Below, in pieces: positions 25,329 to 42,528 of a stretch of DNA of 64,000 bases; position 1 is the first letter of the stretch, and each line of letters opens with the position of its first letter. The notes below the pieces were generated by a model that had not been told where the DNA came from, searched no databases, and worked only from the letters and a program-made list of their open reading frames with translations. This stretch comes from Candidatus Bathyarchaeia archaeon (GTDB taxonomy: Archaea; Thermoproteota; Bathyarchaeia; Bathyarchaeales; Bathycorpusculaceae): assembly GCA_038883655.1 (NCBI GenBank), contig JAVZLQ010000004.1, forward strand, positions 32,001 through 96,000. Direction: 5' to 3'. The position numbers and the translations under genes were made by a program.

Positions 25329-27745
25329 TGGAAATGGAAGAGGCAAAAATTGGAGTATTCCTATCCGACTGCGGAAAACAGTTGGCAGAAATCCTAAACT
25401 TTGAAGAAATAACAAACTATCTGAAAGGCATACCACAAGTCTCCCTCGTGGCTGTTGGCAACGAATTTTGGCGAGGTCAAGGACTAAAAACATTAGTTGA
25501 AGCCGTAAAAAACGGAAAAATAAACCGCGTCGTCGTCGCAGAAAGCATACCAAAAATTGGTGAAATAAACATTGTTGAATCCCTAGAAGCAGTTGGGCTT
25601 AACCCAAACTTCGTTGAAGTTATAGACGTAAAAGACAACTGTGCATGGCCTCACCGTGACGCACCTAAAGAGGCAACGGAAAAGGCGAAGGCTATGCTTT
25701 TGGCTGCAATAGAACGTGTAAAACTTGCGGAGCCAATCGAGAAACTGGAGTTTCCAGCCGTAAAATCCATTCTCGTTATAGGCGGTGGACTGGCTGGAAT
25801 GCAGGCTGCAGAAGACCTAGCGGACATGGGTTTTGAAGTTTACTTGGTTGAGAAGGAGCCGTTTCTAGGAGGGTTAGCCGCGAAGGCTGGGCGTTTCTTC
25901 CCAACAGACGACTGTGCAATATGCATCCAATCGCCAGCTTCAGACGTGAAAACAATAACGCATACTTCGCGAAAATGCGTTTATCGTTCTGGCTTTTCAG
26001 AGATTCCAAACCTTAACGTGCTGACAAACTCTAGGGTTGTAAAGGTTGAGGGCGCGCCTGGAAACTATAAGGTGACCATTGAGAGAAAGCCGAGGTACGT
26101 TAATGAGGAAAAATGTGTTGCATGCGACTTGTGTGCCTCTGTTTGTCCAGTTGAGGTCCTAGACGAGTACAACGCGAGGTTGAAGAGTAGGAAGGCGATT
26201 TACATTAACACGCCGCTTGTTTATCCGCCAGTGTACGCTATAGACGCTAAAGCATGCAAATTCGCCGAGTGCGCCAAGTGCGTTGATGTTTGCCCCACAA
26301 AGGCAATTGAGTTGAACCAAAAAAGCAAGAAAGTTACGCTTAACGTTGGCAGCATAATCGTCGCCACTGGTTTTAAGGAGTATGACCCAAGCGTGATAAA
26401 AGAGTACCACTACGGCGAATATCCAGACGTGATAACGCAGCTTGAGCTTGCAAGGATGATTGACGCCTTCGGTCCAACAAAGGGCATGATAATTCGACCA
26501 TCAGACAAAAAGCCAGCAAAAAGAATAGTCTTCATCCAGTGTGTTGGCTCTAGGGATAGACGCTGGAACCCCTACTGTTCAAGCATATGCTGCATGATAT
26601 CGCTGAAACACGCCACACTGATTAAGTCGGCTTTTCCAGACACTGACATAACGATATGTTACATCGACATAAGAACCACTGGAAGAGAACACGAATACTA
26701 CTATGAACGCGCCCGCGAGATGGGAATAAAATTCGTGAAGGGAAGACCAACGGAAATCTTGCACGACCCAGAGGCAAACCTGCTAATAGTCGATGTTGAA
26801 GACGAACTTTTAAGAAGATTCTTGGAACTGGAAGCAGATCTTGTCGTCTTATCGCCAGCAATGGTGCCTGTTGAAGACGCAAAAGAGCTTGCGGAAATGC
26901 TTGGCTTGGAACTGGACAAGGACGGCTTCTTTAAGGAATATAACGCGAAACTTAGACCTACGGAGACGAAGAAGCGGGGCGTCTTCATCTGCGGTGGAGC
27001 GATATTCCCCAAGGATGCGCCTACAACTTCGCTTCAAGCTCACTCAGCAGCGGTTAAGGCTGCAAAATTCCTATTGAACGGCAAAATTGTCAAAGACCAG
27101 AAAACAGCCTACGTGAACGAGGATTATTGTGGAGACTGCGAATTCTGTCCAGTAACATGCCCATATGGAGCGATAACCCTAACGGAAAAGACTGACGGAC
27201 ACTTTGTCGCGCATGTGGACGATCTCTTATGCGAAGGCTGCGGCGTATGCGTTGGCACATGCCCAGTTGGAGCAATCGAACTTCGCCACTTGAAGCCAAA
27301 CCAGATTTTAGCTCAAATGAAAGCGCTGTTGTCCATTAATGGAACATCAAAACCGCTTGTTTTGGCTTTCTGCTGTTCAGAGTGCGGTCACGCCGCTGTG
27401 GATTCTTCTGGAATGGCTATGCTCAGTTATCCAGCAAACGTGCGCGTGCTGCGTGTGCCGTGCACTGGCATAGTGCAAGTACAGCATATACTGGAAGCCT
27501 TCAAGGCTGGCGCTCAAGGAGTCATGGTTGTCGGATGCAAGCAAGACGGTTGCCACTACGAGGTTGGAAGCCAGAAGGCACAGAAGAAAGTGGAGCTTGC
27601 AAAGGTTTTGCTGAAAGAGTATGGCATTGAGCCAGAACGCCTCGAAATGTTCAACATGGTTTACATAGAAGGTGACAAGTTCGCCGAAGCCGCAAGAGCC
27701 ATGACTGAAAAAGTGGAGAAGCTTGGTGCACTTCAACTAGCCTAA
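25328..27745 (+). CDS. hdrA: HdrA-MvhD fusion with degenerate N-terminal Fe-S domain
   Basis: Motifs GGGLAG, FPTDDCAIC, CSSICCMISLK, ferredoxins and an intact MvhD (FCCSEC, VPCTG, GCKQDGCHY). Confidence 0.9.
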   Translation: MEMEEAKIGVFLSDCGKQLAEILNFEEITNYLKGIPQVSLVAVGNEFWRGQGLKTLVEAVKNGKINRVVVAESIPKIGEINIVESLEAVGLNPNFVEVIDVKDNCAWPHRDAPKEATEKAKAMLLAAIERVKLAEPIEKLEFPAVKSILVIGGGLAGMQAAEDLADMGFEVYLVEKEPFLGGLAAKAGRFFPTDDCAICIQSPASDVKTITHTSRKCVYRSGFSEIPNLNVLTNSRVVKVEGAPGNYKVTIERKPRYVNEEKCVACDLCASVCPVEVLDEYNARLKSRKAIYINTPLVYPPVYAIDAKACKFAECAKCVDVCPTKAIELNQKSKKVTLNVGSIIVATGFKEYDPSVIKEYHYGEYPDVITQLELARMIDAFGPTKGMIIRPSDKKPAKRIVFIQCVGSRDRRWNPYCSSICCMISLKHATLIKSAFPDTDITICYIDIRTTGREHEYYYERAREMGIKFVKGRPTEILHDPEANLLIVDVEDELLRRFLELEADLVVLSPAMVPVEDAKELAEMLGLELDKDGFFKEYNAKLRPTETKKRGVFICGGAIFPKDAPTTSLQAHSAAVKAAKFLLNGKIVKDQKTAYVNEDYCGDCEFCPVTCPYGAITLTEKTDGHFVAHVDDLLCEGCGVCVGTCPVGAIELRHLKPNQILAQMKALLSINGTSKPLVLAFCCSECGHAAVDSSGMAMLSYPANVRVLRVPCTGIVQVQHILEAFKAGAQGVMVVGCKQDGCHYEVGSQKAQKKVELAKVLLKEYGIEPERLEMFNMVYIEGDKFAEAARAMTEKVEKLGALQLA

Positions 27746-27769
27746 ACCAATAAAGGAGCGTTAATCTTG

Positions 27770-28288
27770 ATGGCTGAGGAAACACAAAAGAAAGCGTTGG
27801 CAAAGAATTTTGCAAAAGAAATAACCAGCAGGCTCGGCGGAGAAACAATAACACTATGCTACCAGTGCGGGACATGCGCTTCAAGCTGTCCAGTAGCAAA
27901 AATTACTGACAAATACAATCCAAGAGAAATCATTAGGCTTGCGCTGCTCGGGTTAAGAGACGAAGTTTTGTCTGGCGGCGCCATTTGGCTTTGTTCCTCA
28001 TGCTACAACTGCCAAGAACGTTGTCCACAAAAAGTCGAAATAGCCGACGTAATTTACGCTTTGAGAAACATTGCCATCCGCGAGGGAAACATGCCAAACA
28101 TTTACGCAGAGTTTGCAGCTGGATTAATGAGCGAGGGACGCATAGTCCCTATATCAAAATTCCTCGAGAAAAAACGCGCCGAATACGGCTTACCCCAACT
28201 CAAACCAGCAGGCGTCGAAGCCGTGAAGCGTATTCTCTCAGCAACGGGATTTGACAAAATTCAGTTTAAGAAAGGTGAAGCGCAATGA
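27770..28288 (+). CDS. hdrC: Heterodisulfide reductase subunit C
   Basis: Motifs CYQCGTCASSCP and WLCSSCYNCQERCP. Confidence 0.92.
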   Translation: MAEETQKKALAKNFAKEITSRLGGETITLCYQCGTCASSCPVAKITDKYNPREIIRLALLGLRDEVLSGGAIWLCSSCYNCQERCPQKVEIADVIYALRNIAIREGNMPNIYAEFAAGLMSEGRIVPISKFLEKKRAEYGLPQLKPAGVEAVKRILSATGFDKIQFKKGEAQ

Positions 28289-29160
28289 CGAGCTACGCCT
28301 TATTTTTAGGATGCACAATACCCGCGCGTCAGCCACACTACGAGTTGGCAGCGCGAAAAGCCCTAACAAAACTTGGAATAGAACTCGTCGACCTGGAGAA
28401 TATGACTTGCTGTGCTCCTCCACCGTTGCAATCAATAGATTTGGAAACAAGCCTTGCCATCGCCGCGTACAATATCTGCCTAGCCGAAGAAGCAGACCTA
28501 AATATAGTCACTTTATGCACTGGATGCTTCGAGTCGCTTGCCATGACTAATACCCTTCTAAAAGAGAAGAAAGAGCTTAAGGAAAGGGTTAACAAAATCC
28601 TCGCAGCTGTCGGTAAAGAGTTTAAGGGAAATAAGGAAGTGCGGCATTACCTTCAAGTTTTGATGAACGATGTTGGCTTAAATAACCTGAAAAAGAGTGT
28701 TGTAAAACCACTAAGCAAGCTGAAAGTTGCAGCCTTTTCTGGTTGTCACCTGCTTAGACCAAGCGCGCTCTTGAGGTTTGACGACCCAGAACGCCCAAAA
28801 ATCTTTGACGACCTAATCGAAGCGTTAGGCGCCAAAAGTATCTGGTACAGAAATAAGCTAAAGTGTTGTGGCGGTCTGTTGAGGGGCTACGCTGACGATG
28901 TGGCTTTAGCCATAGCCAGAGACAAAATAGTAAACGCTTTTAAGGCTGGCGCTGACTGCATATCAACGCTTTGTCCATTCTGCTTCTTAACGCTTGATCT
29001 TGGTCAGATGCTCATAAAAACCACGTACAAGGAAGAATATAGCATGCCAGTTATTCACTACGCTGAGCTTTTGAGCATAAGCCTAGGAGTAGACCCAAAA
29101 GAACTTGCGCTCGATTTTCACAAGGTAAAATTGGACCCAGTACTAAGCAAGATCGGCTAA
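28285..29160 (+). CDS. hdrB: Heterodisulfide reductase subunit B
   Basis: Motifs FLGC, TCCA, LCTGC, GCHLLRP, KCCGG, CPFC. Confidence 0.92.
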   Translation: MTSYALFLGCTIPARQPHYELAARKALTKLGIELVDLENMTCCAPPPLQSIDLETSLAIAAYNICLAEEADLNIVTLCTGCFESLAMTNTLLKEKKELKERVNKILAAVGKEFKGNKEVRHYLQVLMNDVGLNNLKKSVVKPLSKLKVAAFSGCHLLRPSALLRFDDPERPKIFDDLIEALGAKSIWYRNKLKCCGGLLRGYADDVALAIARDKIVNAFKAGADCISTLCPFCFLTLDLGQMLIKTTYKEEYSMPVIHYAELLSISLGVDPKELALDFHKVKLDPVLSKIG

Positions 29161-29254: not shown

Positions 29255-29455
29255 ATGAAGGTAACAGCCCTAAAAGAACACAAGTGCTTCTGTTGTGGAG
29301 CAACCATAAAACGTGGCGAGGAATGCTTCGCTTTTTTCGTGAATCCATCTGACCCGAGCAAAAGTGAGTTTGATGTTATCTACACTTGTATAAAATGTAG
29401 TGATGAGGAGAAGTGTAAAATTAGGATAAAGCGTCGAGAGGCAAGCGAATCGTAA
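29255..29455 (+). CDS. Small Zn-finger-like protein
   Basis: HKCFCCG...YTCIKC, 66 aa. Confidence 0.6.
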   Translation: MKVTALKEHKCFCCGATIKRGEECFAFFVNPSDPSKSEFDVIYTCIKCSDEEKCKIRIKRREASES

Positions 29456-29459
29456 ACAG

Positions 29460-29930
29460 TCAGTTTCCTTTTGGAATTTCTATTTCAAGTGCCTCGTTAT
29501 TGTTGCATTTCGTAACCATGCTTTCAATTTTTAGGTGATCAACTGGAAGAGTTATCTTTCGGCATTCGTCAACACAAACATCGTTTCCATCGCCCTTCTT
29601 GTAGCAAACCTTGTTGCAAATTTCTATGCCATCCACATCAGTGTGAACAGTTATTTTTTGTTCTCGGCACTTGCACTGTATTAGAATCCTAATATAATTA
29701 TCGTCCTCAAACACGTCTATCAGGGGTTCTTCAAGTTGTGGTAATGGAATTAAATGCCTAACTGGGCTTGACTCTATTTGCTCGCTGATTATGTACTTCT
29801 TGTATAGAAGTTTCTCCATAGGCTCCACAATGATATCGCTTCTTTCCTCCGCTTCACTTTCGATAAGTTTCTTTACCAAAACCTTGCAGAAAACGTCTAT
29901 GTTTCGGAGGGCTTCCTCAAAACTGCTCAT
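29460..29930 (-). CDS. Cys-rich hypothetical protein, possibly with an Hsp20/alpha-crystallin-like domain
   Basis: EEPLIDVFEDDNYIRIL...ITLP...NNEALEIEIPK resembles archaeal sHsp strands; 8 Cys. Confidence 0.45.
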   Translation of the reverse strand: MSSFEEALRNIDVFCKVLVKKLIESEAEERSDIIVEPMEKLLYKKYIISEQIESSPVRHLIPLPQLEEPLIDVFEDDNYIRILIQCKCREQKITVHTDVDGIEICNKVCYKKGDGNDVCVDECRKITLPVDHLKIESMVTKCNNNEALEIEIPKGN

Positions 29931-30019: not shown

Positions 30020-31105
30020 CTATGCTTTCTTCTTCGCAGCCAATGGAATAGACCGTACATGCTTTACCACGCGGACAATATCTTCAACCTCTTTTTTAGG
30101 CTGTTCCAAGGCTCTGTTTATGGCTATGTCAGCAATAGTCGCTCCCTTATCCGCGATTTTGGTTAGGCATGAAATGTAAGCCCTCAAGTATGGAATTTCT
30201 GGGGCTTCGCGCATCAGCCTTTCAGCTTCTCCTTCAAGAACTTCCTTCATTTCTAGTACGCCGTTAGCCACGCGAAGGTCTCTAGTGAAAATGCAGTCCA
30301 ATGCCTTCTGGAATATTGTTTGGGCTAACTCGCCCATGTGGAAAATCCTCTGTACAACATCTGCTGGGATTCTGTTGCGGTAAACTTTAAGCTCAACGAT
30401 TTTTTTGGCTATGTCTTCAGAATAGTCCGCAATTAACTCCAAATACTGAAGTATCAACCGCGTGGCTGGTATGAAGAGCACGTCAGTCGAACCTATTTGC
30501 TCAGCAATTTCAGGTTTAGCCTGCGCAGAGAGTAACAAGCGGACAGCAAGATAATAAATGGTGTCAGCTTCATCCTCGCGGCTCACAGCCTCCATAGCCA
30601 AATCTTCGTTATTTTCTTGGAATGCCTGCATCGCCTCCGAAAGTATTGTTGACGCAATTAGTGCTAGGCGTCTAACGAGCATGTCGAGTTTGAATTTCGA
30701 TGGGTCTACTGAACACTGCAATAGTATGTTTTTTGGCGTTTCTTCGAGTATTCCGAGACCGATTAGTTTTGGAACTATCCGCCTAATTTCGTCGACGTGT
30801 TCCTTGCTTATTCTTGTTGATGACACGACCCTCAAAACGTCTCTTCCAAGAATGTAGCTTCCAACGATTATCCTTTCGAGCATGCCTTTCTCGTCGCAAG
30901 CATCTGCGTTGATGATGTATTCTTCTGCTTCCTCTTTTAGGGCGAAGTGGCTTGGCATAATCTTTAATGTGCCATCTCTTTCTTGCATTAGGAAAACTAG
31001 GTCTCCAGGGTTTATGTTGTTCTGTTTTGTCCATTCGCTTGGAAGCGAAACAGTCAGTGTTGAATAACCAACTTTTTGAACTTTTCTACTTTCCAAAAGC
31101 TTCAC
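30020..31105 (-). CDS. AbrB-PhoU family regulator (archaeal phosphate uptake regulator type)
   Basis: N-terminal RKVQKVGYSTLTVSLPSEW (AbrB); PhoU repeats with EDEAD and LELIADY. Confidence 0.85.
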   Translation of the reverse strand: MKLLESRKVQKVGYSTLTVSLPSEWTKQNNINPGDLVFLMQERDGTLKIMPSHFALKEEAEEYIINADACDEKGMLERIIVGSYILGRDVLRVVSSTRISKEHVDEIRRIVPKLIGLGILEETPKNILLQCSVDPSKFKLDMLVRRLALIASTILSEAMQAFQENNEDLAMEAVSREDEADTIYYLAVRLLLSAQAKPEIAEQIGSTDVLFIPATRLILQYLELIADYSEDIAKKIVELKVYRNRIPADVVQRIFHMGELAQTIFQKALDCIFTRDLRVANGVLEMKEVLEGEAERLMREAPEIPYLRAYISCLTKIADKGATIADIAINRALEQPKKEVEDIVRVVKHVRSIPLAAKKKA

Positions 31106-31226: not shown

Positions 31227-31439
31227 TTGGAGAAACCTATTAGAAGTTTGGTGAAGGCGATTTCTTGGAGAATTGTGGCAACTTTGACGACAATCATTTT
31301 AGTTGTGATATTCAGTAAGGGCGATTGGAGTTTAGGCGGAATTGTTGGTATTTCTGAACTAATTTTGAAAACTGTTGTTTACTACTTTCATGAGCGTGTT
31401 TGGAACTTGTTGAGTTTTGGCAGGGAGTCGAAGCATTAG
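31227..31439 (+). CDS. DUF2061-like small membrane protein
   Basis: RSLVKAISWRIVAT...YYFHERVW. Confidence 0.8.
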   Translation: MEKPIRSLVKAISWRIVATLTTIILVVIFSKGDWSLGGIVGISELILKTVVYYFHERVWNLLSFGRESKH

Positions 31440-31450
31440 CTCTTTTTATG

Positions 31451-31520
31451 TATGGTATTTACTATTCGTTAAAATATATGCATCAAGTATATATTTTGCA
31501 TTTATGTTATATATGCTTCA
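31451..31520. promoter_or_regulatory. Operator-like cluster upstream of the RHH-GcvH/Hdr operon
   Basis: Copy 2 of the 15-mer (31451-31465); inverted repeat AAAATATAT-N9-ATATATTTT (31471-31497); ATATATGCWTCA at 31474 and 31509. Confidence 0.55.
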
Positions 31521-31543
31521 GATGTAAAGGAGGGTGATGGAAA

Positions 31544-32134
31544 ATGTCTGAATGGAAAACCGTAAGTATAAGACAAGAACTAATAAAACAGATTGAAGAA
31601 GCAATCAAAACAGGGCGCTACAGAAGCATATCAGAATTCGTCTCAGAAGCCATCCGCCTACGCCTCGAAGACCTAATGCGCGCAGAAGGCATACCAGCAG
31701 AAAAACGCAAGGAATTGCTCCTAACACCTGAACTTCTCCTATACACGCCAAAGCACACGTGGGCACAAGTAACACCTGAAGGGAACATTCGCGTGGGTGT
31801 TTCAGACTACGCCCAGAGGCACTTGAAGGGTATAGCAAACATAATGACCGAACCAGTTGGAAAAGAAATAAGCCACATGGAGCCTTTCGGCGTTGCTGAA
31901 ACATGGATGTTCATGTTCGACCTTTACGCGCCAGTAAGCGGCAAAATAGTTAAAGTGAATGAGAAGCTAAAGAACGAGCCAAACCTTGTTAACGAAGACC
32001 CATACGGCGAAGGTTGGATTGTGGAGATTAAGCCGAACAACTCGTTAACTTTGGAACAGGAACTTAAAAAGCTGTTGAGCGCCCGTGAGTACAATAGGTG
32101 GGTAAGCAAGCTTGAAGGCAGACTGAGAGAATAA
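31544..32134 (+). CDS. Ribbon-helix-helix domain fused to a GcvH-like domain lacking the lipoyl lysine
   Basis: N-terminal WKTVSIRQEL...YRSISEFVSEAIR (RHH). GcvH hallmarks YTPKHTW, VGVSDYAQ, DLYAPVSG, VNEDPYGEGW. ETWMFMF replaces ESVKA. Confidence 0.85.
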   Translation: MSEWKTVSIRQELIKQIEEAIKTGRYRSISEFVSEAIRLRLEDLMRAEGIPAEKRKELLLTPELLLYTPKHTWAQVTPEGNIRVGVSDYAQRHLKGIANIMTEPVGKEISHMEPFGVAETWMFMFDLYAPVSGKIVKVNEKLKNEPNLVNEDPYGEGWIVEIKPNNSLTLEQELKKLLSAREYNRWVSKLEGRLRE

Positions 32135-32240
32135 ATTATTTCCCCTTTTCTTTACTTTATGTTATTTTTGCGTTAAACTTAACGTGGATGCCCTAATATA
32201 CTCGATGTGTTTCATAAATTTATTCTAAGTTGGTTTGACA

Positions 32241-33962
32241 ATGACAAAGAATAACCAAACAAAAGTAAAGAAACTTCCACCATGCCGCTCCGCATGCCCA
32301 GCCCACGTGAACGTTCAAGGTTACGTCTCGCTGCTCCAAAGAGGCAAATTCAAAGAGGCAGTTGAAATAATCCGCAAGGACATGCCCTTCCCCGCCATCT
32401 GCGGACGCGTATGCTTCAGCCCATGTGAAGACGCATGCGCAAGAACAAACGTTGACCAAGCAGTGGCAATACGCGCACTAAAAAGGCTCGTAGCAGACAT
32501 AGAAAGGGAGCAAGGACGCGTAAAACCAGAACCAATACCCAAAAAGTACAACGAAAAAGTCGCTATAATAGGTGCTGGACCGGCGGGATTAACAGCAGCC
32601 TACGAACTCGCAAAACTTGGTTATCCAGTAACTGTTTTTGAGCGTATGGCTGAACCTGGCGGAATGATGCGCTATTGCATACCCAACTTCCGCCTTGAAA
32701 AGTTTGTTGTGGCGAATGAGATAGCCTACATAAAGGATTTGGGCGTGGAAATAAAGACTGGCGTGGAATTTGGAAAGGGTATAACGCTCGAAAGCCTACG
32801 TAAGGATGGCTATAAGGCGATTTTCCTTGCAATCGGAACACAGAAAGGCATGAAACTTAACATTCCAGGTGAGGAGTTTGAAGGCGTGATAAACGCTGTT
32901 GACTTTTTGAGGGCTATATCTTTGGGCGAACCAATAAAAGTTGGTGAAAGAGTCGCCGTCATAGGCGGTGGAAACACAGCCATAGACGCGGCGAGAACCG
33001 CAAAGAAGCTCGGCGCAAAAGAAGTCATGATATTGTATAGGCGTTCACGCGATGAGATGCCCGCGCTGCCCCATGAAGTAGCAGAGGCAGAAAAGGACGG
33101 CGTTAAATTCTACTTCCTAGTCGCGCCAAAGCAAATAATTGGCGAGAATGGCAGGGTTAAAGCTGTTGAATGCTTGAGAATGCGTCTCGGCGAACCAGAC
33201 GAAAGTGGAAGAAGAAAGCCAATCCCAATAAGCTTTTCAGAGCATCAATACGAGGTTGACATGGTTATACCCGCACTTGGGCAAGTCCTAGAATTGTCAT
33301 GCGTGCCGCCAGAACTTTTAGATAAAGAGGCAAAAGCACCTTCAATAAAAGTTGACTTTACAACAATGGAAACAAGCGTGAAAGGCGTTTTTGCTGGCGG
33401 CGACATGGCTACTGGACCAGCAAGCATCATTGAGGCGGTTGGGGCAGGCAAGAAAGCGGCAGTTTCGATTCACCTTTATCTCCGTGGGCAAGACCCGAGA
33501 AGCGCAAGGGAAGAGAAAATCGAGGAAACGACTTGGGTTAGGAATTGGGGTTACATCAAAAAGAAGGAACGCAGATACGAGCCTCCCTTGGAAAAGCCTC
33601 ACCTAAGCTTTGAAGAGGCTAAAGTTTACCTTGAAAAGCTGAAGCGCGAAGCGGTTTTTGAGGCTTTCCGTTGTTTAGGCTGTGGACCATGCGCGGAATG
33701 CCTAGCAGAACTAGACTTATGCGAGGGGGACAAGGCTGTTGTCGACGAAAACCTATGCGTGGGCTGTAACGTCTGCGCTGTTGTATGTCCGTTTGGGGCG
33801 ATAAAAAAGAACGAGAATGAGATTGCGCAGGTTAATGAGGAGCTTTGTAAGGGATGCGGAATATGTGCTGCGCGGTGTCCGGAACAGGCAATTTCAATGA
33901 AGAAGCTTTCGAATGAACGCATACTGAACCTTGCCTTGCAAGTTGAGGAGGCAAAAGCATGA
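32241..33962 (+). CDS. GltD/NfnB-like FAD/NAD(P) oxidoreductase with C-terminal ferredoxin
   Basis: Motifs PPCRSACPAH, ICGRVCFSPCE, GAGPAG, GGGNTAID, YRRS, FAGGD and C-terminal CxxCxxCxxxCP motifs. Confidence 0.88.
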   Translation: MTKNNQTKVKKLPPCRSACPAHVNVQGYVSLLQRGKFKEAVEIIRKDMPFPAICGRVCFSPCEDACARTNVDQAVAIRALKRLVADIEREQGRVKPEPIPKKYNEKVAIIGAGPAGLTAAYELAKLGYPVTVFERMAEPGGMMRYCIPNFRLEKFVVANEIAYIKDLGVEIKTGVEFGKGITLESLRKDGYKAIFLAIGTQKGMKLNIPGEEFEGVINAVDFLRAISLGEPIKVGERVAVIGGGNTAIDAARTAKKLGAKEVMILYRRSRDEMPALPHEVAEAEKDGVKFYFLVAPKQIIGENGRVKAVECLRMRLGEPDESGRRKPIPISFSEHQYEVDMVIPALGQVLELSCVPPELLDKEAKAPSIKVDFTTMETSVKGVFAGGDMATGPASIIEAVGAGKKAAVSIHLYLRGQDPRSAREEKIEETTWVRNWGYIKKKERRYEPPLEKPHLSFEEAKVYLEKLKREAVFEAFRCLGCGPCAECLAELDLCEGDKAVVDENLCVGCNVCAVVCPFGAIKKNENEIAQVNEELCKGCGICAARCPEQAISMKKLSNERILNLALQVEEAKA

Positions 33963-34702
33963 GTTCCAAAATTGTTTGTTTCATGTGTAATTGGGCTTTC
34001 TGCCTAGAGGAAATGGAAATTCCAAAAAACGTTAACATTGCCCGCGTAATGTGCATCGGAAGGCTTGATCCAACCATAGTTTTGGATGTACTTGCGAAGG
34101 GCGCTGACGGCGTTTTAATGATTGGCTGCAAACCACCAGACTGCCACTACATTGAAGGAAACCTTCAAGCGGAAAGAGCTGTGAAACTTCTAAAAAAGCT
34201 TGTTTCACTTGCTGGTTTGGAGCCGGAACGTGTAAGGCTTGAATGGTACACACCGCTAGAGGGAAAAAGCTTCATTCAACACCTGAAAGAGCTTAACACC
34301 GTTATAACTGCACTTGGAGAATCTCCAATAAAAGCGTCTCCAGAATCAGAACTTATGCTAAACATTTTGGCTGCTAAAAACGCGGCTTCTAACTTTAGGC
34401 TTAGGGTTTTGCTTGGAAGGGAAAGGGAACTCACAGAAAGCGTCAACGTTTACGGAGAAAAAATCTCGCAGGAGGAATTCGACTTTCTGATGGACGAAAT
34501 AGTCAAGGAAGAGTTCCTGCGCCACAAAATCCACTTGTTGACCAAGACCAAGCCGCTTTCGGTTAAAGAGCTGGCTAAAGCGCTTGGAGTCAAGCCCGCA
34601 GATGTTCTCAAACAGATTGTGAACATGCGTAGGAAGAACATGATAACAATAGAACGTTTCATGGAAACAACACCCCTTTACAGGGCGTTGGAGGTGAAGT
34701 AA
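33959..34702 (+). CDS. MvhD-like [2Fe-2S] domain fused to a C-terminal winged helix-turn-helix
   Basis: Motifs FMCNW, RVMCIGRLDP, GCKPPDCHY. C-terminal LSVKELAKALGVKPADVLKQIVNM. Confidence 0.78.
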   Translation: MSSKIVCFMCNWAFCLEEMEIPKNVNIARVMCIGRLDPTIVLDVLAKGADGVLMIGCKPPDCHYIEGNLQAERAVKLLKKLVSLAGLEPERVRLEWYTPLEGKSFIQHLKELNTVITALGESPIKASPESELMLNILAAKNAASNFRLRVLLGRERELTESVNVYGEKISQEEFDFLMDEIVKEEFLRHKIHLLTKTKPLSVKELAKALGVKPADVLKQIVNMRRKNMITIERFMETTPLYRALEVK

Positions 34703-34703
34703 A

Positions 34704-37700
34704 ATGGCGGTTACAAATCAAAAGGTTGGAGCAGTTCTTGTTGTTGGCGGAGGAGTTGCCGGAATCCAAGCCTCCTTGGATTTGGCTGATTCTGGCTTCA
34801 AAGTGTATCTTATCGACGAGGGCGCAAGCATCGGCGGCGTAATGGCTCAGCTTGACAAGACTTTTCCAACAAACGACTGTTCGATGTGCATTCTCTCGCC
34901 GAAACTTGTGGCTACTGGTAGGCATCCCAACATAACAATTTTAACCAACACGGAAATTTTGGGCATGGACGGCGAGGCTGGAAACTTCGAAGTTAAACTT
35001 CGAAAACGCGCCCGTTACATAATCGAAGATAAATGCAACGGCTGTGGTTTATGCGCACAAAAATGCCCAATTGAAGCCATAGACATCTACAACGAAGGCT
35101 TAAGCAAAAGAAGTGCAATCTACGTCGACTATCCACAAGCTGTACCGCTCAAGTACAAGATTGACCGCGAAAAATGCATCGGCTGTGGAACATGCTACGA
35201 AATATGTAAAGCAAAAGCCGTGGCTTACGACCAGCAAGACAGCGAAGCTACTCTAAAAGTCGGCGCAATAATACTTGCACCGGGATTCGAAACGTTTGAT
35301 GCGCGGTTGAAGAGTGAGTACGGTTATGGACGTTACGCAAATGTTGTTACAAGCATAGAGTTTGAGCGTATATTAAGCGCTTCTGGACCATACGGCGGCG
35401 TGGTTTTGCGACCTTCTGACGGCGAAATCCCAAAGAAAATTGCCTTTATTCAATGTGTTGGTTCTCGTGATGCCCAGCTTGGAAACAACTACTGTTCCGC
35501 GGCGTGTTGCATGTACGGAATGAAAGAGGCTGTCATAGCCAAAGAGCACACGCCAACAAAGCTTGACGCCACAATATTCTTTATGGATTTACGCGCTTAT
35601 GGAAAGGAGTTTGACGCCTATTACAACCGCGCCAAAGAAGAGTGGGGAATAAGATTTGTCAGGTCTAGGGTTGCAGGTGTATCCGAAGATCCTCTGACTG
35701 GAAACCTTATCGTGCATTATGTTGAGGATGAAACGCCGAAAACAGAAGAATTCGACATGGTTGTACTCTCCATCGGCATGCAACCACCAAAAAATGTTGA
35801 AAAACTCGCGAAAGCCCTTGGAATAGAGCTTAACAAGTACATGTTCTGCAAAACAAACACCTTCACACCACTAGAAACTTCAAGACCAGGAGTTTTCGTC
35901 TGCGGCGCATTCAGCGCGCCTAAAGATATTCCAGAGAGCGTCGCCCAGGCAAGCGGAGCAGCGGCAAAAGCAATGAGCATAATTGCAAGCGAGAGAGGCA
36001 AGCTTGTAACGGTTAAAGAGTACCCGCAGGAAAGGGACATAAGCCAAGAAGAACCGCGAATAGGCGTTTTCGTCTGCCACTGTGGAATAAACATAGGCGG
36101 AGTCGTAAACGTTCCAGAAGTTGTTGAGTACGCCAAAAAACTCCCAAACGTGGTTTACGCAGAAGCAAACCTATACACGTGTTCGCAGGACACGCAGAAA
36201 CTAATCAAAGAAAAAATTCAACAGTACAAACTAAACCGCGTCGTCGTAGCCTCGTGCACTCCGCGCACCCACGAGCCACTGTTTAGGGAAACCGTTCAAG
36301 AAGCTGGATTAAACCCCTACCTTTTCGAGATGGCAAACATACGCGACCAATGCAGTTGGGTGCACATGCACGAACCAAAAGCGGCAACAGAAAAGGCGAA
36401 AGACCTTGTGCGCTCAGTCGTTGCGAAGGCTAGGCTTCTACAACCATTAAAGAAGCCGCAAATAGCCGTTACGCCAGTAGGCTTGGTCATAGGCGGCGGA
36501 GTTTCTGGAATGACTGCAGCCCTAGAACTTGCAAAGCAAGGCTTCGAAGTACACTTAGTTGAAAGAGAAAAAGAACTCGGTGGACACTTACGTCACATAC
36601 ATTATTTGCTTGAGGGCGACGAAGACCCGCAGCAAAAGCTGAAAGTCCTAATAAGCGAGGTTATGGCGAACAGCAAAATCCACGTTCACCTGGACTCTGA
36701 AGTTGTTAGCATCGAAGGGTTTGTTGGCAACTTCAAAACTAGGATAAGGCGGCATAACGGTGGAGAAGTGGAAGTTGAAAATGGCATAGTGATTGTGGCT
36801 ACTGGCGCAATGGAATACACACCAAAAGAGTACCTTTACGGCACAGACCCGCGAGTGCTCACCCAGAGGGAACTCGAAGAAAAACTTGCAAAAGGCAACT
36901 TCAAAGCCAAAACCGTCGTCATGATACAATGCGTCGGAGCAAGAAATGAAGAAAGACCAAACTGCGCGCGGATATGCTGCGGACAAGCAATAAAGAACGC
37001 CCTAAAAATTAAGGAGTTGAGCCCACAAACAGAAGTTTACGTGTTATATAAGGATGTTAGGGCTTACGGCTTTAAGGAGGATTATTACCGCGAAGCCGCA
37101 GCGAAAGGCGTGCTCTTCGTAAACTATGAAGATGAAAGGAAACCGCAAGTTGTTAATGAAGGCGGCAAGCTTAAAGTGCGGTTCTGGGAACCAGTGCTAA
37201 AAGAAGAAATCGAAATCGAACCAGACCTCGTCGTTTTAAGCGCGGCAACAATTCCTAACATAGACAACAAGCGCGTGGCAGAAATGCTCAAAGTTCCGCT
37301 AACAAAGGACGGCTTCTTCCTAGAAGCTCACATGAAGCTTAGACCAGTTGACTTCGCAACTGAAGGCGTTTTCCTATGCGGGATGGCGCACTCGCCAAAA
37401 TACATTGACGAAAGCATAGCGCAAGCCTGCGCTGCAGCCGCAAGAGCCGCTACGATACTCTCGAAACCAACGCTTGAGATGGAGGGAATCGTGGCAAACG
37501 TAAACGAAGATTTATGTAGCGGATGTAGAATCTGTGAATATCTATGCCCATACGGGGCAATAGAGATGCAAGAGAAAGACGGCAAACTTACGGCACACGT
37601 AATTGAAGCCTTATGCAAGGGCTGCGGCGCCTGCGGAACCGCATGTCCAACAAAAGCCATCATCATGGGACACTTCACAACCGAAGAAATACTCGCCCAA

Positions 37701-37733
37701 GTTAGAGCCGCACTTGTGGAGGCGACAGCATGA
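34704..37733 (+). CDS. hdrA: Tandem (double) HdrA, 1009 aa
   Basis: Two FAD domains (GGGVAG, GGGVSG). FPTNDCSMC occurs in half 1 only; the [14 protein letters not shown] domain is internal; C-terminal ferredoxin. Confidence 0.92.
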
Positions 37734-38167
37734 CTGAAAAGGAAAATTTTGAACCTAAAATAATTGGTTTCCTATGCAACTGGTGTAGCTACGCAGGCGC
37801 AGACCTAGCAGGAGTAAGCAGAATCCAATACCCACCAAACATTAGAATTGTACGCGTCATGTGCAGCGGCAGAATCGACCCAATCTTCATTTTAGAAGCA
37901 TTCAAGAATGGCGCCGACGGCGTGCTGGTGGCTGGTTGCCACCTACCATCAGATTGCCACTACATTAGTGGAAACTTCAAGGCTTTGAGAAGGGTAACAT
38001 TATTAAGGAAAATTCTTTCAGAATTTGGAATCGAACCAGAACGCCTGCGGCTGGAATGGGTCTCTGCAAGCGAAGGAGACCGTTTCGCCGCAATAGTACG
38101 CGAAATGGTTGAAGAAATAAAAAAGCTTGGTCCAAGTCCCCTAAAGAAAATGGAGGTTAAAACATAA
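37730..38167 (+). CDS. mvhD: MvhD [2Fe-2S] subunit
   Basis: Motifs [31 protein letters not shown]. Confidence 0.95.
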
Positions 38168-38700
38168 TGTCACAAGCAGAAAAAGAGCCCATAAGGGCTT
38201 CTGAAATTGACCCCAAATTCAAATACGAAATCGCAAAGCTGCCAGGCGGAGAAAAACTCATGCGCTGCTTCCAGTGTGGCACATGCACTTCAGACTGCCC
38301 AATCGCAAAGTTCAGCGACACTTATAGGCCTAGGCAGATTATCCGCATGACACAGCTTGGTTTACGCGAAAGAGTTTTGAGCAGCGACACATTGTGGCTT
38401 TGCGCCTCATGTTTCACGTGCACGGACAGATGTCCACAAGACGTTGAGGTTGCAAGCGTAATTCGCGTTCTCCGTAACTTAGCGGCTGAAAGGGGATACA
38501 TTCCACAAGTTTTTAAGGAGCAAGCATCAAGCATCTTGGAGTCTGGGTACGCCTACAAAATCCCAGACCTGCGAATAAAGAAGAGGGAAAGTTTGGGTTT
38601 GCCGCCGTTGCCGCGTGGAAACCCCGAAGGCATAAAGAAGATTCTCCATGGCATAAACTTCCTAAAGTTTGTTGAAGGTGAGAAAAGTGCCACAAAATAA
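38167..38700 (+). CDS. hdrC: Heterodisulfide reductase subunit C (copy 2)
   Basis: Motifs CFQCGTCTSDCP and WLCASCFTCTDRCP. Confidence 0.92.
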   Translation: MSQAEKEPIRASEIDPKFKYEIAKLPGGEKLMRCFQCGTCTSDCPIAKFSDTYRPRQIIRMTQLGLRERVLSSDTLWLCASCFTCTDRCPQDVEVASVIRVLRNLAAERGYIPQVFKEQASSILESGYAYKIPDLRIKKRESLGLPPLPRGNPEGIKKILHGINFLKFVEGEKSATK

Positions 38701-39574
38701 ATTCCTAATCTTCCTCGGATGCGCAATACCCTATAGGGTTTCAGCTTACGAAATCTCAGCGCGAAAAGTCCTTCAAAAATTAGGCGTAGAACTCGTCGAA
38801 ATGCCAGAATTCAACTGCTGCGGCTTGCCAATGGACCCCGTAAGCCATGAAATGATGCTTATTTTGGCGGCGAGGAACCTCGCTCTGGCGGAGCGTGAAG
38901 GACTAAACATTTTAACACTTTGTCCGGGATGCGCTGGCACGCTCAAGAAAGTTAATAAGATGTTGAAGGAGGATAAAGCCCTACGCGAAGAAGTAAACAA
39001 GCGCTTGAAGGAAGATGGTCTAGAGTTTAAGGGAACAATAGACGCGAAGCATCTGATGCAAGTGCTCATTGAAGATGTTGGCTTGGAACGAATAAAGAAC
39101 GCGGTTGTAAAGCCTTTAACGGCGCTTAAAGTCGCAGAACACAACGGCTGCCACATTTTAAGGCCAAAAGAATACATTGGTTTTGACGACCCAGAAGACC
39201 CGCAGACGCTTAAGAGGCTTGTGGAGGCTACTGGCGCCACATGCCTAGATTATCTCGACGAGACGGAGTGTTGCGGCGCCCCAAGCGTGGGCGTAAACGA
39301 CAAGATTGCGCTTCAGCTTGCACGGGACAAGCTTAACCACATAAAAGTGGTTGGCGCCCAAGCCATGATTACGATATGCCCGTTCTGCCACATAATGTAT
39401 GACACTAACGAGCTGCGCATAGAAAAAATGTTCAACGAAACCTACGGCATACCAATATTGCATTATACGCAGCTGCTTGGCTTGGCTATGGGAATACCGC
39501 CAGAAGAGCTTGCCTTCAACGAACTTAGAGTTGACGCTTCAAAAATATTGAGAACAGCGTTGGAAGGTGCATAA
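38687..39574 (+). CDS. hdrB: Heterodisulfide reductase subunit B (copy 2)
   Basis: Motifs FLGC, NCCG, LCPGC, GCHILRP, ECCG, CPFC; GTG start at 38687. Confidence 0.92.
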   Translation: MPQNKFLIFLGCAIPYRVSAYEISARKVLQKLGVELVEMPEFNCCGLPMDPVSHEMMLILAARNLALAEREGLNILTLCPGCAGTLKKVNKMLKEDKALREEVNKRLKEDGLEFKGTIDAKHLMQVLIEDVGLERIKNAVVKPLTALKVAEHNGCHILRPKEYIGFDDPEDPQTLKRLVEATGATCLDYLDETECCGAPSVGVNDKIALQLARDKLNHIKVVGAQAMITICPFCHIMYDTNELRIEKMFNETYGIPILHYTQLLGLAMGIPPEELAFNELRVDASKILRTALEGA

Positions 39575-39575
39575 G

Positions 39576-40559
39576 ATGAGTAAGAATAAACTGAAGTTCG
39601 CGTTTTATTGGGCTGCAAGTTGCGGCGGCTGCGAAATCGCAGTTTTAGACATAAACGAGAAAATATTGGACGTGCTTCAAATAGCTGACATCGTCTTCTG
39701 GCCTGTTGCCATGGACATAAAATATAAAGACGTCGAAGCGATGCCAGACAAATATATTGACGTGTGCTTCTTTAATGGTGGAATACGCAACAGCGAGCAA
39801 GAACACATGGCTAAGCTATTGAGGCAAAAATCGAAAATACTTGTTGCTTATGGCGCTTGCGCTCACCTTGGCGGGGTTCCAGGACTTGCGAACTTGACTA
39901 ACCGTGAAGAGATTTTTGAGAAGGTTTATGCTGAAACATTTTCAACTGCAAACCCGAACAAGGCAATGCCAAAGCCCAAGGTTGCGGTTAAGGAGGGCGA
40001 ATTAGACATTCCAGAGTTCTATGACACTGTTAGAACGCTTGACCAGACAGTGGATGTGGATTATTATGTTCCTGGCTGTCCGCCAGCGGTTGAACGCACT
40101 CTGTACGCTTTGGAAGTCATAGCCAAAGGCGAATTGCCGCCGAAAGGCTCTGTACTTGCGCCGCTAAAGTCTGTTTGCGACGAATGCCCAAGAAAGAAGG
40201 AGAACAAGAAAATCTCGAAAGTTTATCGCGTTTACGAGAAGGCTCCAGAACCAGAAAAATGCCTACTGGAACAAGGAATAATTTGCATGGGACCAGCCAC
40301 AAGAGGCGGATGCGGAGCAAGATGCCTGAAGGCAGACATGCCATGCACGGGATGCGGTGGACCATGCCCGAACTCGCCAGAACAAGGAGCCGCCATGATA
40401 AGCGCGCTTGCTTCTATACTCGGCTTGGAAGAGGAAAAAGAAAAGTACACTGAAGAGGAAGTGGAAAAACTAATCAGTCAAGTAAAAGACCCGATTGGCA
40501 CGTTTTACATGTACGCTTTGCCAGCTTCAATTTTACGTAGGAGGATTATGCGAAAATGA
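39576..40559 (+). CDS. mvhG: [NiFe]-hydrogenase small subunit (copy 2)
   Basis: Motifs ASCGGC, GACA, GCPP, CMGPATRGGC. Confidence 0.9.
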   Translation: MSKNKLKFAFYWAASCGGCEIAVLDINEKILDVLQIADIVFWPVAMDIKYKDVEAMPDKYIDVCFFNGGIRNSEQEHMAKLLRQKSKILVAYGACAHLGGVPGLANLTNREEIFEKVYAETFSTANPNKAMPKPKVAVKEGELDIPEFYDTVRTLDQTVDVDYYVPGCPPAVERTLYALEVIAKGELPPKGSVLAPLKSVCDECPRKKENKKISKVYRVYEKAPEPEKCLLEQGIICMGPATRGGCGARCLKADMPCTGCGGPCPNSPEQGAAMISALASILGLEEEKEKYTEEEVEKLISQVKDPIGTFYMYALPASILRRRIMRK

Positions 40560-42010
40560 AGAAGGTTGTTATTGACCCAATAACGAGGCTTGAGGGACAC
40601 GGGAAAATAGCCATATTCCTAAACGACGCAGGCGAGGTGGAAAACGCCTATCTGCAGATTCCAGAACTTAGGGGCTTTGAAAAGTTTTGCATTGGAAGAA
40701 AGGCTGAGGACATGCCGCTTTTGACGAGTAGGATTTGCGGTGTTTGTCCAGTTGCGCATCATATGGCTGGAACAAAGGCTTTAGATGCAGCGTTTAACGT
40801 TGAACCGCCACCAACAGCCAAAAAGCTCCGTGAACTAATGTATTGTGGCTACTATATTTACGACCATACATTGCACTTCTATTATTTGGGCGGTCCAGAC
40901 TTCGTCGTAGGACCCGACGCTCCACCAGAAAAAAGGAACATTATAGGCGTTATTGAGAAGGCTGGACTTGAAATTGGCAAAGAAGTAATAAAGCATAGAG
41001 CCTATGGGCAGAGGATAACCGAAATAATTGGCGGAAAAGCCACACATCCAGTCTGCGGGATTCCAGGCGGAATCTCCAAACCCCTAAGTGAAGAAGAGCG
41101 TAGCGAAATTGAGAAGATGGCTTCTTCAGCAGTCGACTTTGCAAAGTTTTCACTGAAGCTCTTTCACAACCTCGTTCTTGGAAACAGCAAATACGTCGAC
41201 TTGATTAAGAGCGACGCTTACACGCTGAAAACCTACTACATGGGCTTGGTTGACGAAAACAACAAGGTGAACTTCTACGACGGCAAAATAAGGGTTGTTG
41301 ACCCAAACGGTAGGGAATTCGCGAAGTTCGAAGCCAAAAACTACCTTGACCACATAGCGGAGCACGTTGAAGAATGGACTTACGTGAAGTTTCCGTACCT
41401 TAAGAAAATTGGCTGGAAAGGCTTCGTGGATGGTCCAGAAAGCGGAGCATACCGTGTTGGACCGCTTGGAAGGCTCAACGCTGCGGACGGAATGGCAACA
41501 CCATTAGCGCAAGCGGAATACGAGCTCATGTATAAGACTCTTGGCGGAAAACCAGTTCATTCAACCCTTGCCTATCACTGGGCTAGGCTTATAGAGCTGC
41601 TTTATGCCGCTGAAAGAGCCTTGGAGCTTAGCAGAGACCCAGAAATAACAAGTAAGGATGTGCGCAACAAGCCAGGCGAGCCTGGAGAAGGCGTAGGCGT
41701 GGTTGAAGCGGCCAGGGGAACGCTTATTCACCATTACGTTTTGGATGAAAATGCGCTGATAAAAGATGTTAACCTAATAGTTGCAACGGTCAACAATAGT
41801 CCATCAATAAACATGTCTGTTCGGAATGCCGCCAAAGGCTTGATACATGGTGACAAAATTGATCACGGCGTTTTAAACATGGTTGAAATGGCTTTTAGGG
41901 CATATGATCCATGCTTTGGCTGCGCCACACACTTCGCCTTCGGTCAGATGCCACTAACAATAGAAATTTTCAACAGCGAAAAGAAGCTAATAAAGACGCT
42001 GCGAAGGTAA
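40556..42010 (+). CDS. mvhA: [NiFe]-hydrogenase large subunit (copy 2)
   Basis: Motifs RICGVCPVAH and AYDPCFGCATH plus extension. Confidence 0.93.
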   Translation: MKKVVIDPITRLEGHGKIAIFLNDAGEVENAYLQIPELRGFEKFCIGRKAEDMPLLTSRICGVCPVAHHMAGTKALDAAFNVEPPPTAKKLRELMYCGYYIYDHTLHFYYLGGPDFVVGPDAPPEKRNIIGVIEKAGLEIGKEVIKHRAYGQRITEIIGGKATHPVCGIPGGISKPLSEEERSEIEKMASSAVDFAKFSLKLFHNLVLGNSKYVDLIKSDAYTLKTYYMGLVDENNKVNFYDGKIRVVDPNGREFAKFEAKNYLDHIAEHVEEWTYVKFPYLKKIGWKGFVDGPESGAYRVGPLGRLNAADGMATPLAQAEYELMYKTLGGKPVHSTLAYHWARLIELLYAAERALELSRDPEITSKDVRNKPGEPGEGVGVVEAARGTLIHHYVLDENALIKDVNLIVATVNNSPSINMSVRNAAKGLIHGDKIDHGVLNMVEMAFRAYDPCFGCATHFAFGQMPLTIEIFNSEKKLIKTLRR

Positions 42011-42039
42011 ATTTCCCATTTTCAATTACGGCGAATTTA

Positions 42040-42528
42040 TTGGTTAACCAGAAACTAAAGAAGAATTTGAAGGATTGGCTTTCTAATGCCAGAAAAGTTG
42101 TTGTTGCTGGGATTGGAAACCCCATAAGGATGGATGATTTTGTCGGAGTCAAGATTATCCAAGAACTACGCGGAAAGGTCTCTGAGAAGGTTTTTTTGAT
42201 CGAATGTGAAACTGTCCCAGAAAGTTTTATGCAGCAAATAATAGATTTCAGCCCAACGCACGTCTTGTTGATTGACGCTGCAGTTTTGGGGCTTAAGCCA
42301 GGAGAGGCAAAGCTTGTCTATCCACAGGATTTAACGATTTTTCCAGCATTTTCAACGCATATGCTTCCGCTACGCCTGTTTTGTGAGTACCTATCAAAAA
42401 CTTTGGAGGCGAAAATTGCCTTGCTGCTTATACAGCCTAAAAGTGCAGAGTTTGGCGAAGGCTTAACAAAGGAAGTTGCAGTTTCAGCCACCAAAATTGT
42501 TAATCTGCTGCTGAAGGTTCTTCCATAA
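42040..42528 (+). CDS. hycI: Hydrogenase maturation endopeptidase (HycI-type)
   Basis: Motifs GIGNPIRMDDFVG, ETVPE, LIDAA, FSTH. Start is approximate. Confidence 0.88.
   Translation: MVNQKLKKNLKDWLSNARKVVVAGIGNPIRMDDFVGVKIIQELRGKVSEKVFLIECETVPESFMQQIIDFSPTHVLLIDAAVLGLKPGEAKLVYPQDLTIFPAFSTHMLPLRLFCEYLSKTLEAKIALLLIQPKSAEFGEGLTKEVAVSATKIVNLLLKVLP

Follow-up and report, generated by a model that had tools for sequence, protein, structure and literature searches.

A lysine-less H-protein fold joined to a putative ribbon-helix-helix domain at an Hdr/Mvh locus of Bathyarchaeia

Why should a protein with the fold of the glycine-cleavage H protein lack the lysine that carries lipoate, be preceded by what looks like a DNA-binding motif, and lie directly ahead of genes for an Hdr/Mvh-type complex? 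The question is raised by a gene, here called RHH-GcvH, in a stretch of 64,000 nucleotides (the window, i.e., all of the DNA analysed) from a Candidatus Bathyarchaeia archaeon (assembly GCA_038883655.1, contig JAVZLQ010000004.1, positions 32,001 to 96,000). Bathyarchaeia are abundant and uncultured, and we know of no account of what controls their Hdr/Mvh-type electron-bifurcating complexes or of the physiological substrate of these complexes. With moderate confidence we propose that RHH-GcvH is a ribbon-helix-helix (RHH) transcription factor in which a dead H-protein fold would serve as an oligomerisation or partner-sensing module. The features on which the proposal turns are:

31544..32134, + strand: RHH-GcvH gene, 196 amino acids (RHH about residues 4-45, linker about 46-62, Lys-less H-protein fold about 63-190)
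31553..31573, + strand: WKTVSIR, codons 4-10, predicted RHH beta-strand that aligns to the NikR beta-strand
31898..31918, + strand: remodelled lipoylation hairpin E119-T-W-M-F-M-F125, with Met122 in place of the lipoyl lysine

The two parts of the protein and the lost lysine

The open reading frame (ORF) starts with ATG behind an AAGGAGG box, and the fusion of an RHH with a GcvH fold, which had been proposed in an earlier sequence-only reading, is borne out by Pfam matches to both parts. GCV_H matches residues 65-188 with an E-value of 2.5e-31 (108.6 bits, cut-off 22.2). An AlphaFold model made from an 18-row family alignment (mean predicted local distance difference test, pLDDT, 83.3) agrees with this, in that its top Foldseek matches in the PDB are all H-proteins (3a8j_E, 3hgb, 3ab9, 1onl_A and the human and bovine H-protein; E about 1e-13, template modelling (TM) scores of 0.85-0.93 normalised to the target).

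For the N-terminus an RHH is supported at the level of sequence. RHH_1 matches residues 6-42 of the whole protein with E 4.2e-4 (20.6 bits, cut-off 20.5) and the N-terminal 60 amino acids by themselves with 24.7 bits; this stretch is 4th among the 7 matches of a six-frame scan across the genome, above the cut-off, and 8 of 15 family N-termini match at E<=0.01. When a profile of the 15 N-termini was searched against PDB sequences the top match was H. pylori NikR, with E 0.005 and an alignment that takes in the strand and both helices; a CopG-family protein came next (E 0.033) and, at E 0.078-0.98, CopG/Arc/MetJ antidote, HicB3 and ParD chains amid unrelated chains. The predicted strand reads WKTVSIR in 109 of the 120 closest homologues; the variants WKTVSLR, WKTISIR and WRTVSLR account for the remaining 11. 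Like the strand, the start of helix 2 is near-invariant in the family. Polar or basic residues alternate in the strand with hydrophobic ones, as they do in the base-reading ribbon of NikR, MetJ and Arc, which suggests that T6, S8 and R10 face outward as base-reading residues and that V7 and I9 point inward.

The modelled monomer consists of an extended N-terminus, helices at 9-22 and 29-47, a short helix at 52-58 and then a beta-rich domain. The pLDDT of its RHH region is 58-82, and the strand is one that cannot form in a monomer. A homodimer prediction, made with a broad family alignment and with controls absent, gave a score of 0.20 (mark 0.42), which counts neither for nor against dimerisation. 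When a natural tandem fusion (P0121) was folded as one chain, with two alignment rows covering its middle, the mean pLDDT was 66.2, with values below 50 over most of both RHH segments and the linker.

The replacement of the lipoyl lysine by methionine, and the remodelling of its neighbours, can be read in the sequence and the alignment alike: codon 31907-31909 is ATG (Met122) and the codon just before it, 31904-31906, is TGG (Trp121). The hairpin is ETWMFMFDL in 115 of the 120 closest homologues and ETWMF[VLI]FDL in the other 5, so that ETWMF[MVLI]FDL describes all of them. Since the remodelled hairpin is conserved in this way a sequencing error or a recent pseudogene is excluded, as the sequence-only reading had expected when it called a single-base error unlikely and named conservation of the architecture and of ETWMFMF as the check. 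The 120 are the best of 1352 relatives of similar length found at E<=1e-3; they are 85-100% identical, 196-202 amino acids long, and from Bathyarchaeia or Bathyarchaeota wherever an organism is named. None of the 120 has the lipoyl Lys in the alignment. In a library of 50%-identity representatives (149 of the best 150 aligned, one protein of 1391 amino acids being left out) the loss likewise holds for all orthologues, with Lys at the lipoyl position in 0 of 21 RHH-bearing representatives, while among the 128 without the RHH part Lys is kept in 105 and absent from 23, several of the latter being fragments of the RHH-GcvH family. Distant paralogues keep the Trp at the hairpin tip in a longer loop (e.g., ET-x2-3-W-P-L), and in paralogues the lipoyl-Lys position is taken by Trp, Leu, Phe and others. 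Because the Lys has become Met, carriage of lipoate by the H-protein fold of RHH-GcvH is impossible. The 196 amino acids also include no Cys, as had been stated from the sequence, and the same is true of 118 of the 120 closest homologues. One ORF of 148 amino acids (G062:C65:18082-18501) matches the H-protein part of the family profile only (positions 59-197, E 4e-52) and may represent either a gene that was truncated or an independent Lys-less copy lacking the RHH.

The distribution of the family was followed in 401 sampled genomes of the class, a full-length member being defined as one that covers profile positions 1 to at least 189 with a best E<=1e-60. Such members occur in 44 of 168 genomes from the window's own order and in 0 of 233 from other orders; the 44 belong to families f1 (24), f2 (11), f4 (6), f5 (2) and f8 (1), and a further copy, in genome G302, is cut by a contig end. 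All that a protein atlas search returned were clusters of this family and ordinary GcvH. A divergent cluster of 180 amino acids includes one member that its source labels Baldrarchaeota, so the range may extend a little beyond the order. Two adjacent paralogues are found in nine genomes (G350, G306, G077, G397, G354, G118, G223, G392, G357), adjacent pairs are seen in loci L044, L052, L053, L054, L056 and L057, and a search for longer forms gave seven tandem (RHH-GcvH)x2 fusion proteins of 397-417 amino acids. These pairs and fusions fit a dimeric working unit.

The name GcvH is functionally wrong for this protein. Source names are available for 63 of the 120 closest clusters, of which 55 are called glycine cleavage H or GcvH, 2 CopG-family RHH and 6 hypothetical; the looser GcvH subfamily model PRK01202 gives 122.6 bits (cut-off 117) and the NCBIfam equivalog TIGR00527 gives 102.9 bits, below its cut-off of 115.85. 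A check for GcvH and lipoate ligase elsewhere had been suggested with the sequence-only reading. A canonical GcvH of 136 amino acids, with Lys in the usual V-E-S-V-K-A-V-S-D hairpin, is encoded elsewhere in the genome (contig C1), and the window itself includes an LplA-like gene (49314-49985). A search for LipA (TIGR00510) found nothing in this genome, whose completeness is 93%. GcvT is on contig C3 and GcvPA/PB on C2, none of the three components being near RHH-GcvH (C4). The statement that the window holds no gcvP, gcvT or gcvL is therefore correct as regards GcvT and GcvP, as PF01571 (GcvT) and PF02347 (GcvP) match on C3 and C2 only, with none in the window, and the L-protein was not searched for. 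At L001 121-1893 (contig C1) the canonical GcvH adjoins an ORF of 448 amino acids that by eye resembles a pyridine-nucleotide-disulfide oxidoreductase and may stand in for the L protein. The misannotation of RHH-GcvH is systematic, and reconstructions that count it as GcvH would overstate the capacity for glycine cleavage.

The downstream operon, its promoter and the neighbourhood

RHH-GcvH lies between two rows of Mvh/Hdr genes in the window. The second row, which is the putative target operon, starts 100 bp downstream of the gene:

32235..42528, + strand: putative target operon, GltD-like to HycI
32235-33962, + strand: GltD/NfnB-like flavoprotein with an added 2x[4Fe-4S] domain, TTG start at 32235
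33959-34702, + strand: MvhD-like protein with a C-terminal extension
34704-37733, + strand: HdrA, 1009 amino acids
37730-38167, + strand: MvhD
38167-38700, + strand: HdrC
38669-39574, + strand: HdrB
39567-40559, + strand: MvhG
40556-42010, + strand: MvhA
41911-42528, + strand: HycI protease

Conservation of this arrangement was assessed in 20 loci from diverse genomes and in a second, partly overlapping set of 80 loci (one genome per species, 79 assessable downstream). The GltD-like/Hdr/Mvh row is directly downstream in 18 of the 20; in the second set the GltD-like gene is at most 250 bp downstream in 65 of 79 loci and at 668-1191 bp in 3 more, and is absent from the available sequence in 11, of which 3 have less than 2 kb of flank. 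The homologues are thus linked to hdr genes, as the sequence-only reading required. Among the 11, a different surrounding is seen in L112, L123 and L128, with matches to hydrogenase small and large subunits 4.4-4.5 kb downstream, preceded in L128, which was scanned with Pfam, by TauE-like and NuoE/F/G-like genes. In two others of the 11, L109 and L134, no hydrogenase or hdr gene was found downstream of RHH-GcvH.

Between RHH-GcvH and the operon, and ahead of RHH-GcvH itself, lie the following elements:

31493..31526, + strand: own-promoter element, GTTATATATGC then TTCAGATG, a candidate autoregulatory site over the likely TATA/start region
32140..32169, + strand: T-rich stretch past the RHH-GcvH stop, likely an archaeal terminator region
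32159..32192, + strand: candidate operator of the GltD-like/Hdr/Mvh operon (conserved promoter columns)
32160-32164, + strand: box TGTTA, part of the candidate operator
32171-32184, + strand: perfect dyad CGTTAAACTTAACG, part of the candidate operator
32185-32190, + strand: box TGGATG, part of the candidate operator
32193..32201, + strand: probable TATA box CTAATATAC (TTAATATAT in most orthologues), 34-42 bp upstream of the GltD-like start

A promoter-like region of its own lies ahead of the gene and T-rich sequence follows its stop, where C/T-rich runs are found in most of the orthologous loci compared; in the window's lineage the gene therefore probably precedes the operon and is not its first cistron. 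Of the earlier description of the gene as heading an Hdr/Mvh operon the linkage stands and the status as first cistron probably does not.

An alignment of 58 distinct RHH-GcvH/GltD-like intergenic stretches, anchored on the TTAATATAT box, shows the presumed TATA columns (34-42) to be invariant or nearly so in the 58 orthologous promoters. Ahead of them are four near-invariant blocks, namely G-Y-Y-A, 11 bp on G-Y-Y-A-A, an inverted T-R-R-Y, and T-T-A-G-R-T-G, which ends 3 bp ahead of the TATA box; the consensus is a dyad-like element, GYYAA-N2-TTRRY, plus TTAGRTG. At this position, 7-11 bp from the TATA box, perfect dyads that differ in sequence occur in several orthologues. Of the 290 cells in the five core column pairs, 185 are complementary in register, against 15-98 in slid registers.

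A weight matrix from the orthologous operon promoters, built without the window, L058 and L059, was used to scan the whole genome. The operon promoter of the window scores highest (31.3 bits), the second and third hits (22.4 and 17.2 bits) fall inside coding ORFs, and the fourth (13.6 bits) is 31493-31526, directly upstream of the RHH-GcvH start codon. The latter element is conserved as G-Y-T-A-T-A-T-A-T-C-A-n-T-C-A-G-A-T-G in most orthologues and is a perfect dyad in L109. As a search for a regulon the operator matrix gave no promoter in the genome beyond the operon's and the gene's own. One site upstream of the target TATA box and one over the gene's own TATA/start region would give the layout expected of an autoregulated local factor.

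Of the sequencing runs listed for this DNA, three from one hot-spring study, none is on record as RNA. A raw RNA run (X3) gave one read pair on the gene and its upstream region, at 31407-31808. In two contig runs (X1 and X2), labelled metatranscriptomic and flagged as probably DNA, the summed depth is 360-1290 over the gene and 1-193 in other bins; this is the most conserved stretch, where contigs of relatives pile up at 90% likeness, and the depths are therefore no measure of expression.

Upstream of RHH-GcvH the window holds:

22935-29160: first Mvh/Hdr row (MvhG, MvhA, HdrA-MvhD fusion, HdrC, HdrB)
30020..31105, - strand: AbrB/SpoVT-PhoU fusion, 361 amino acids, divergent (Pfam PhoU, two repeats, and MazE_antitoxin, AbrB-type)
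31227..31439, + strand: small membrane protein with DUF2061, encoded between AbrB-PhoU and RHH-GcvH; some orthologous loci lack it

AbrB-PhoU is divergently upstream in 19 of the 20 loci and upstream in 71 of 76 assessable loci of the second set; it is the most constant neighbour of RHH-GcvH and is kept even where the Hdr operon is absent. Between the first row and AbrB-PhoU are genes for a Cys-rich protein of 66 amino acids (29255-29455, +; by eye a possible zinc ribbon) and one of 156 amino acids (29460-29930, -), both without family match and both conserved at this place in most orthologous loci. Immediately upstream of the first row, at 20015-22813 (+), an ADP-forming acetyl-CoA synthetase-like protein of 932 amino acids (CoA_binding, Succ_CoA_lig, ATP-grasp_5) carries a C-terminal GNAT acetyltransferase domain. 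Within the operon the MvhD/FlpD-like protein has a C-terminal extension of about 120 amino acids with weak winged-helix-like matches (IF2_N E 6e-4, PF0610-like_N E 1e-3) and is a candidate for a third protein with a DNA-binding or docking role at the locus. The MvhD-like/HdrA pair is tandemly duplicated in L051, L114, L120 and L136 (GltD-like, MvhD-like, HdrA, MvhD-like, HdrA, MvhD and so on).

Transcription factor, docking protein or subunit

In the proposed mechanism the RHH motif would dimerise and its beta-ribbon (T6, S8, R10) would enter the major groove. The target would be GYYAA-N2-TTRRY, with the direct-repeat box 11 bp upstream of it and the TTAGRTG box downstream, placed 7-11 bp upstream of the TATA box of the GltD-like/MvhD/HdrA/MvhD/HdrCB/MvhGA operon, and the related element over the gene's own promoter would allow autoregulation. 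The H-protein fold, with its hydrophobic, Trp-bearing hairpin tip and the remaining H-protein surface kept, would act as the effector module. It might join RHH dimers into a higher oligomer on the three-box operator, as the C-terminal domain does in NikR, or it might dock on a protein partner. The dyad-like element at the operon promoter and the related element at the gene's own promoter lend the proposal indirect support. The sensor or decoy role of the fold and the lipoyl-protein connection suggested in the sequence-only reading are still conjectures. If correct, the proposal would show clearly how a fold that carries a cofactor can be taken over as a transcription factor's effector domain. 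RHH-GcvH also offers a testable handle on the control of these complexes, being a small soluble protein with a defined operator-like DNA element and a defined operon.

Several findings weigh against RHH-GcvH as the factor that acts at these sites, or lend it no support. The whole-protein RHH_1 score is barely above its cut-off (20.6 against 20.5 bits). Covariation in the dyad beyond that expected from composition is weak (one inverted column pair has 39 complementary cells where 31.5 are expected, a value reached by 61 of 2000 shuffles, and one direct pair has 45 where 31.4 are expected), so the dyad exists at the level of the consensus and gives no proof of co-evolving half-sites. As orthologous promoters are related by descent, their conservation alone overstates constraint. 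A specificity-swap signal between half-sites and the RHH strand is absent, the strand being invariant and the Y/R positions freely variable. No such element was found ahead of the NuoEFG-type operon or in loci from the tandem-paralogue lineages. In the tandem-paralogue lineages the RHH-GcvH gene is 66-121 bp from the GltD-like gene, a spacing that looks more like co-transcription, and no TATA-like anchor was found in the two intergenic stretches checked there (L136, L137). The degree of conservation of RHH-GcvH is that of the catalytic subunits, which is unusual in a regulator; in L038, for example, identities to the window are 87% for RHH-GcvH, 90% for MvhA, 83% for HdrA, 82% for the GltD-like protein, 70% for AbrB-PhoU and 61% for the MvhD-like protein. 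Finally, AbrB-PhoU or the extended MvhD-like protein could equally be the binder of the element.

It is conceivable, though we think it unlikely, that an Hdr-type or flavoprotein subunit is the docking site of the dead H-protein fold, and that the complex captures or releases the RHH factor as its state of assembly or its redox state changes. Candidates for the partner are the neighbouring GltD-like protein, with its pyridine-nucleotide-disulfide-oxidoreductase fold, and the CCG subunit HdrB. By analogy with the lipoyl-bearing H protein or with LbpA (see below), the hairpin would be presented to the partner enzyme as a mimic, and the operon would sense its own product in a feedback resembling that of PutA, here from a carrier that has no cofactor. 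If true, H-protein-like domains would be ancient partners of Hdr-type modules well beyond sHdr and LbpA, a possibility at which the Anaerolineae fusions described below also hint.

That the protein belongs to the GltD-like/Hdr/Mvh complex as an accessory or assembly subunit and is no DNA-binding regulator, the dead fold docking on an Hdr-type subunit and the RHH merely dimerising, appears to us equally doubtful. It would account for a conservation like that of catalytic subunits, for the short distance to the GltD-like gene in the tandem-paralogue lineages (66-121 bp, with no TATA-like anchor in L136 and L137), and for two parallels discussed below, the Anaerolineae proteins in which Lys-less GCV_H domains are fused to FAD/Fe-S/CCG (HdrD-like) oxidoreductases and the GcvH-like LbpA, a known partner of sHdr systems (PMC6067878). 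On the other hand the near-invariance of the WKTVSIR strand and of the helix-2 start is what is expected of an RHH that reads DNA, and in the window's lineage the gene is flanked by a promoter-like region of its own and, past its stop, by T-rich sequence. The gene also occurs ahead of a NuoEFG-type hydrogenase operon or with no hydrogenase or hdr gene nearby (L109, L134), and, conversely, related MvhD-like/HdrA operons exist in genomes that do not have it. MvhD-like homologues were found in 97 of the 401 sampled Bathyarchaeia genomes, and in 61 genomes this marker is present without RHH-GcvH, which argues that RHH-GcvH is no general Hdr subunit; the test is weakened in that all four loci examined from such genomes have another operon layout, with the GltD-like gene absent.

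It is also improbable, in our judgement, that RHH-GcvH binds DNA and regulates only itself or other targets, the promoter elements belonging to AbrB-PhoU or to the MvhD-like protein. The motif analysis assigns the element to no particular protein. AbrB-PhoU accompanies RHH-GcvH more constantly than the operon does (71 of 76 loci), and remains beside it in loci that lack the GltD-like operon (L048, L055, L116, L118, L121, L134). Against this, L127, L129 and L131 keep both the element and RHH-GcvH without an adjacent AbrB-PhoU, and a dyad with a direct repeat is a usual layout of RHH operators such as those of Arc, MetJ, omega and NikR.

That the protein is an antitoxin of type II or a genuine glycine-cleavage H protein can be set aside as highly improbable, because the weak NCBIfam match to a ParD-family antitoxin (E 1.1e-5; TIGR02606 25.4 bits, cut-off 46.2) comes with no toxin-like neighbour seen, the adjacent genes being DUF2061/AbrB-PhoU and the GltD-like gene, and the PRK01202 score above cut-off and the source name 'glycine cleavage system protein GcvH' are countered by the family-wide absence of the lipoyl Lys, by TIGR00527 falling below its cut-off and by the canonical GcvH elsewhere in the genome. 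An idea taken from the likeness to NikR, that RHH-GcvH senses nickel, was dropped for want of any Cys or conserved His cluster in the protein.

Comparison with known systems

With GcvH (PF01597, TIGR00527) RHH-GcvH shares the whole H-protein fold and the post-hairpin motif D-L-Y-A-P-V-S-G. It differs in that the lipoyl Lys is replaced and has a Trp before it, an RHH is fused in front, and there is no linkage to gcvP or gcvT. The lipoate-binding GcvH-like proteins of sHdr sulfur oxidation, LbpA, are likewise a GcvH-like fold genetically tied to Hdr-type complexes (PMC6067878). LbpA, however, keeps and needs its lipoyl lysine, has no DNA-binding domain and goes with sHdr, whereas RHH-GcvH goes with Mvh/Hdr and the GltD-like protein.

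Dead H-protein folds are physically joined to an Hdr-type (CCG) redox module in a family of Anaerolineae proteins (P0132 and P0316-P0329; 15 clusters, 950-1400 amino acids). These carry one to three GCV_H domains together with FAD_binding_4, FAD-oxidase_C, a 4Fe-4S dicluster and two CCG domains in a GlcD/HdrD-like arrangement, and Lys is absent from 32 of the 33 GCV_H domains aligned. Unlike RHH-GcvH they are bacterial, have no RHH, and have Arg-rich instead of Trp-tipped hairpins, at an identity of about 34%. The family adds a further connection, independent of the first, of dead H-protein folds with Hdr-type modules, and suggests a wider, unrecognised partnership between the two. A further Anaerolineae protein (P0256, 264 amino acids, named GcvH by its source) combines a TIR domain with a GCV_H domain in which the lipoyl Lys is replaced by Leu.

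NikR, which controls metal- and hydrogenase-related genes, is the best PDB sequence match for the RHH (NikR NCBIfam models match this part with E 0.024-0.092) and has the same layout, an N-terminal RHH followed by a C-terminal domain of about 80-130 amino acids that does not bind DNA. In NikR that domain is an ACT-like nickel-binding tetramerisation domain, whereas in RHH-GcvH it is an H-protein fold. PutA, in which an RHH is fused to a metabolic enzyme that reports redox state, likewise joins an RHH to a protein of primary metabolism; its fused part is an active flavoenzyme, whereas that of RHH-GcvH is a carrier fold without cofactor. A literature search found no paper on a fusion of RHH and H protein, although supplements, which lay outside the search, could hold annotations. 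RHH factors with C-terminal effector domains are known from NikR and PutA, and a dead H-protein fold in that role would be new.

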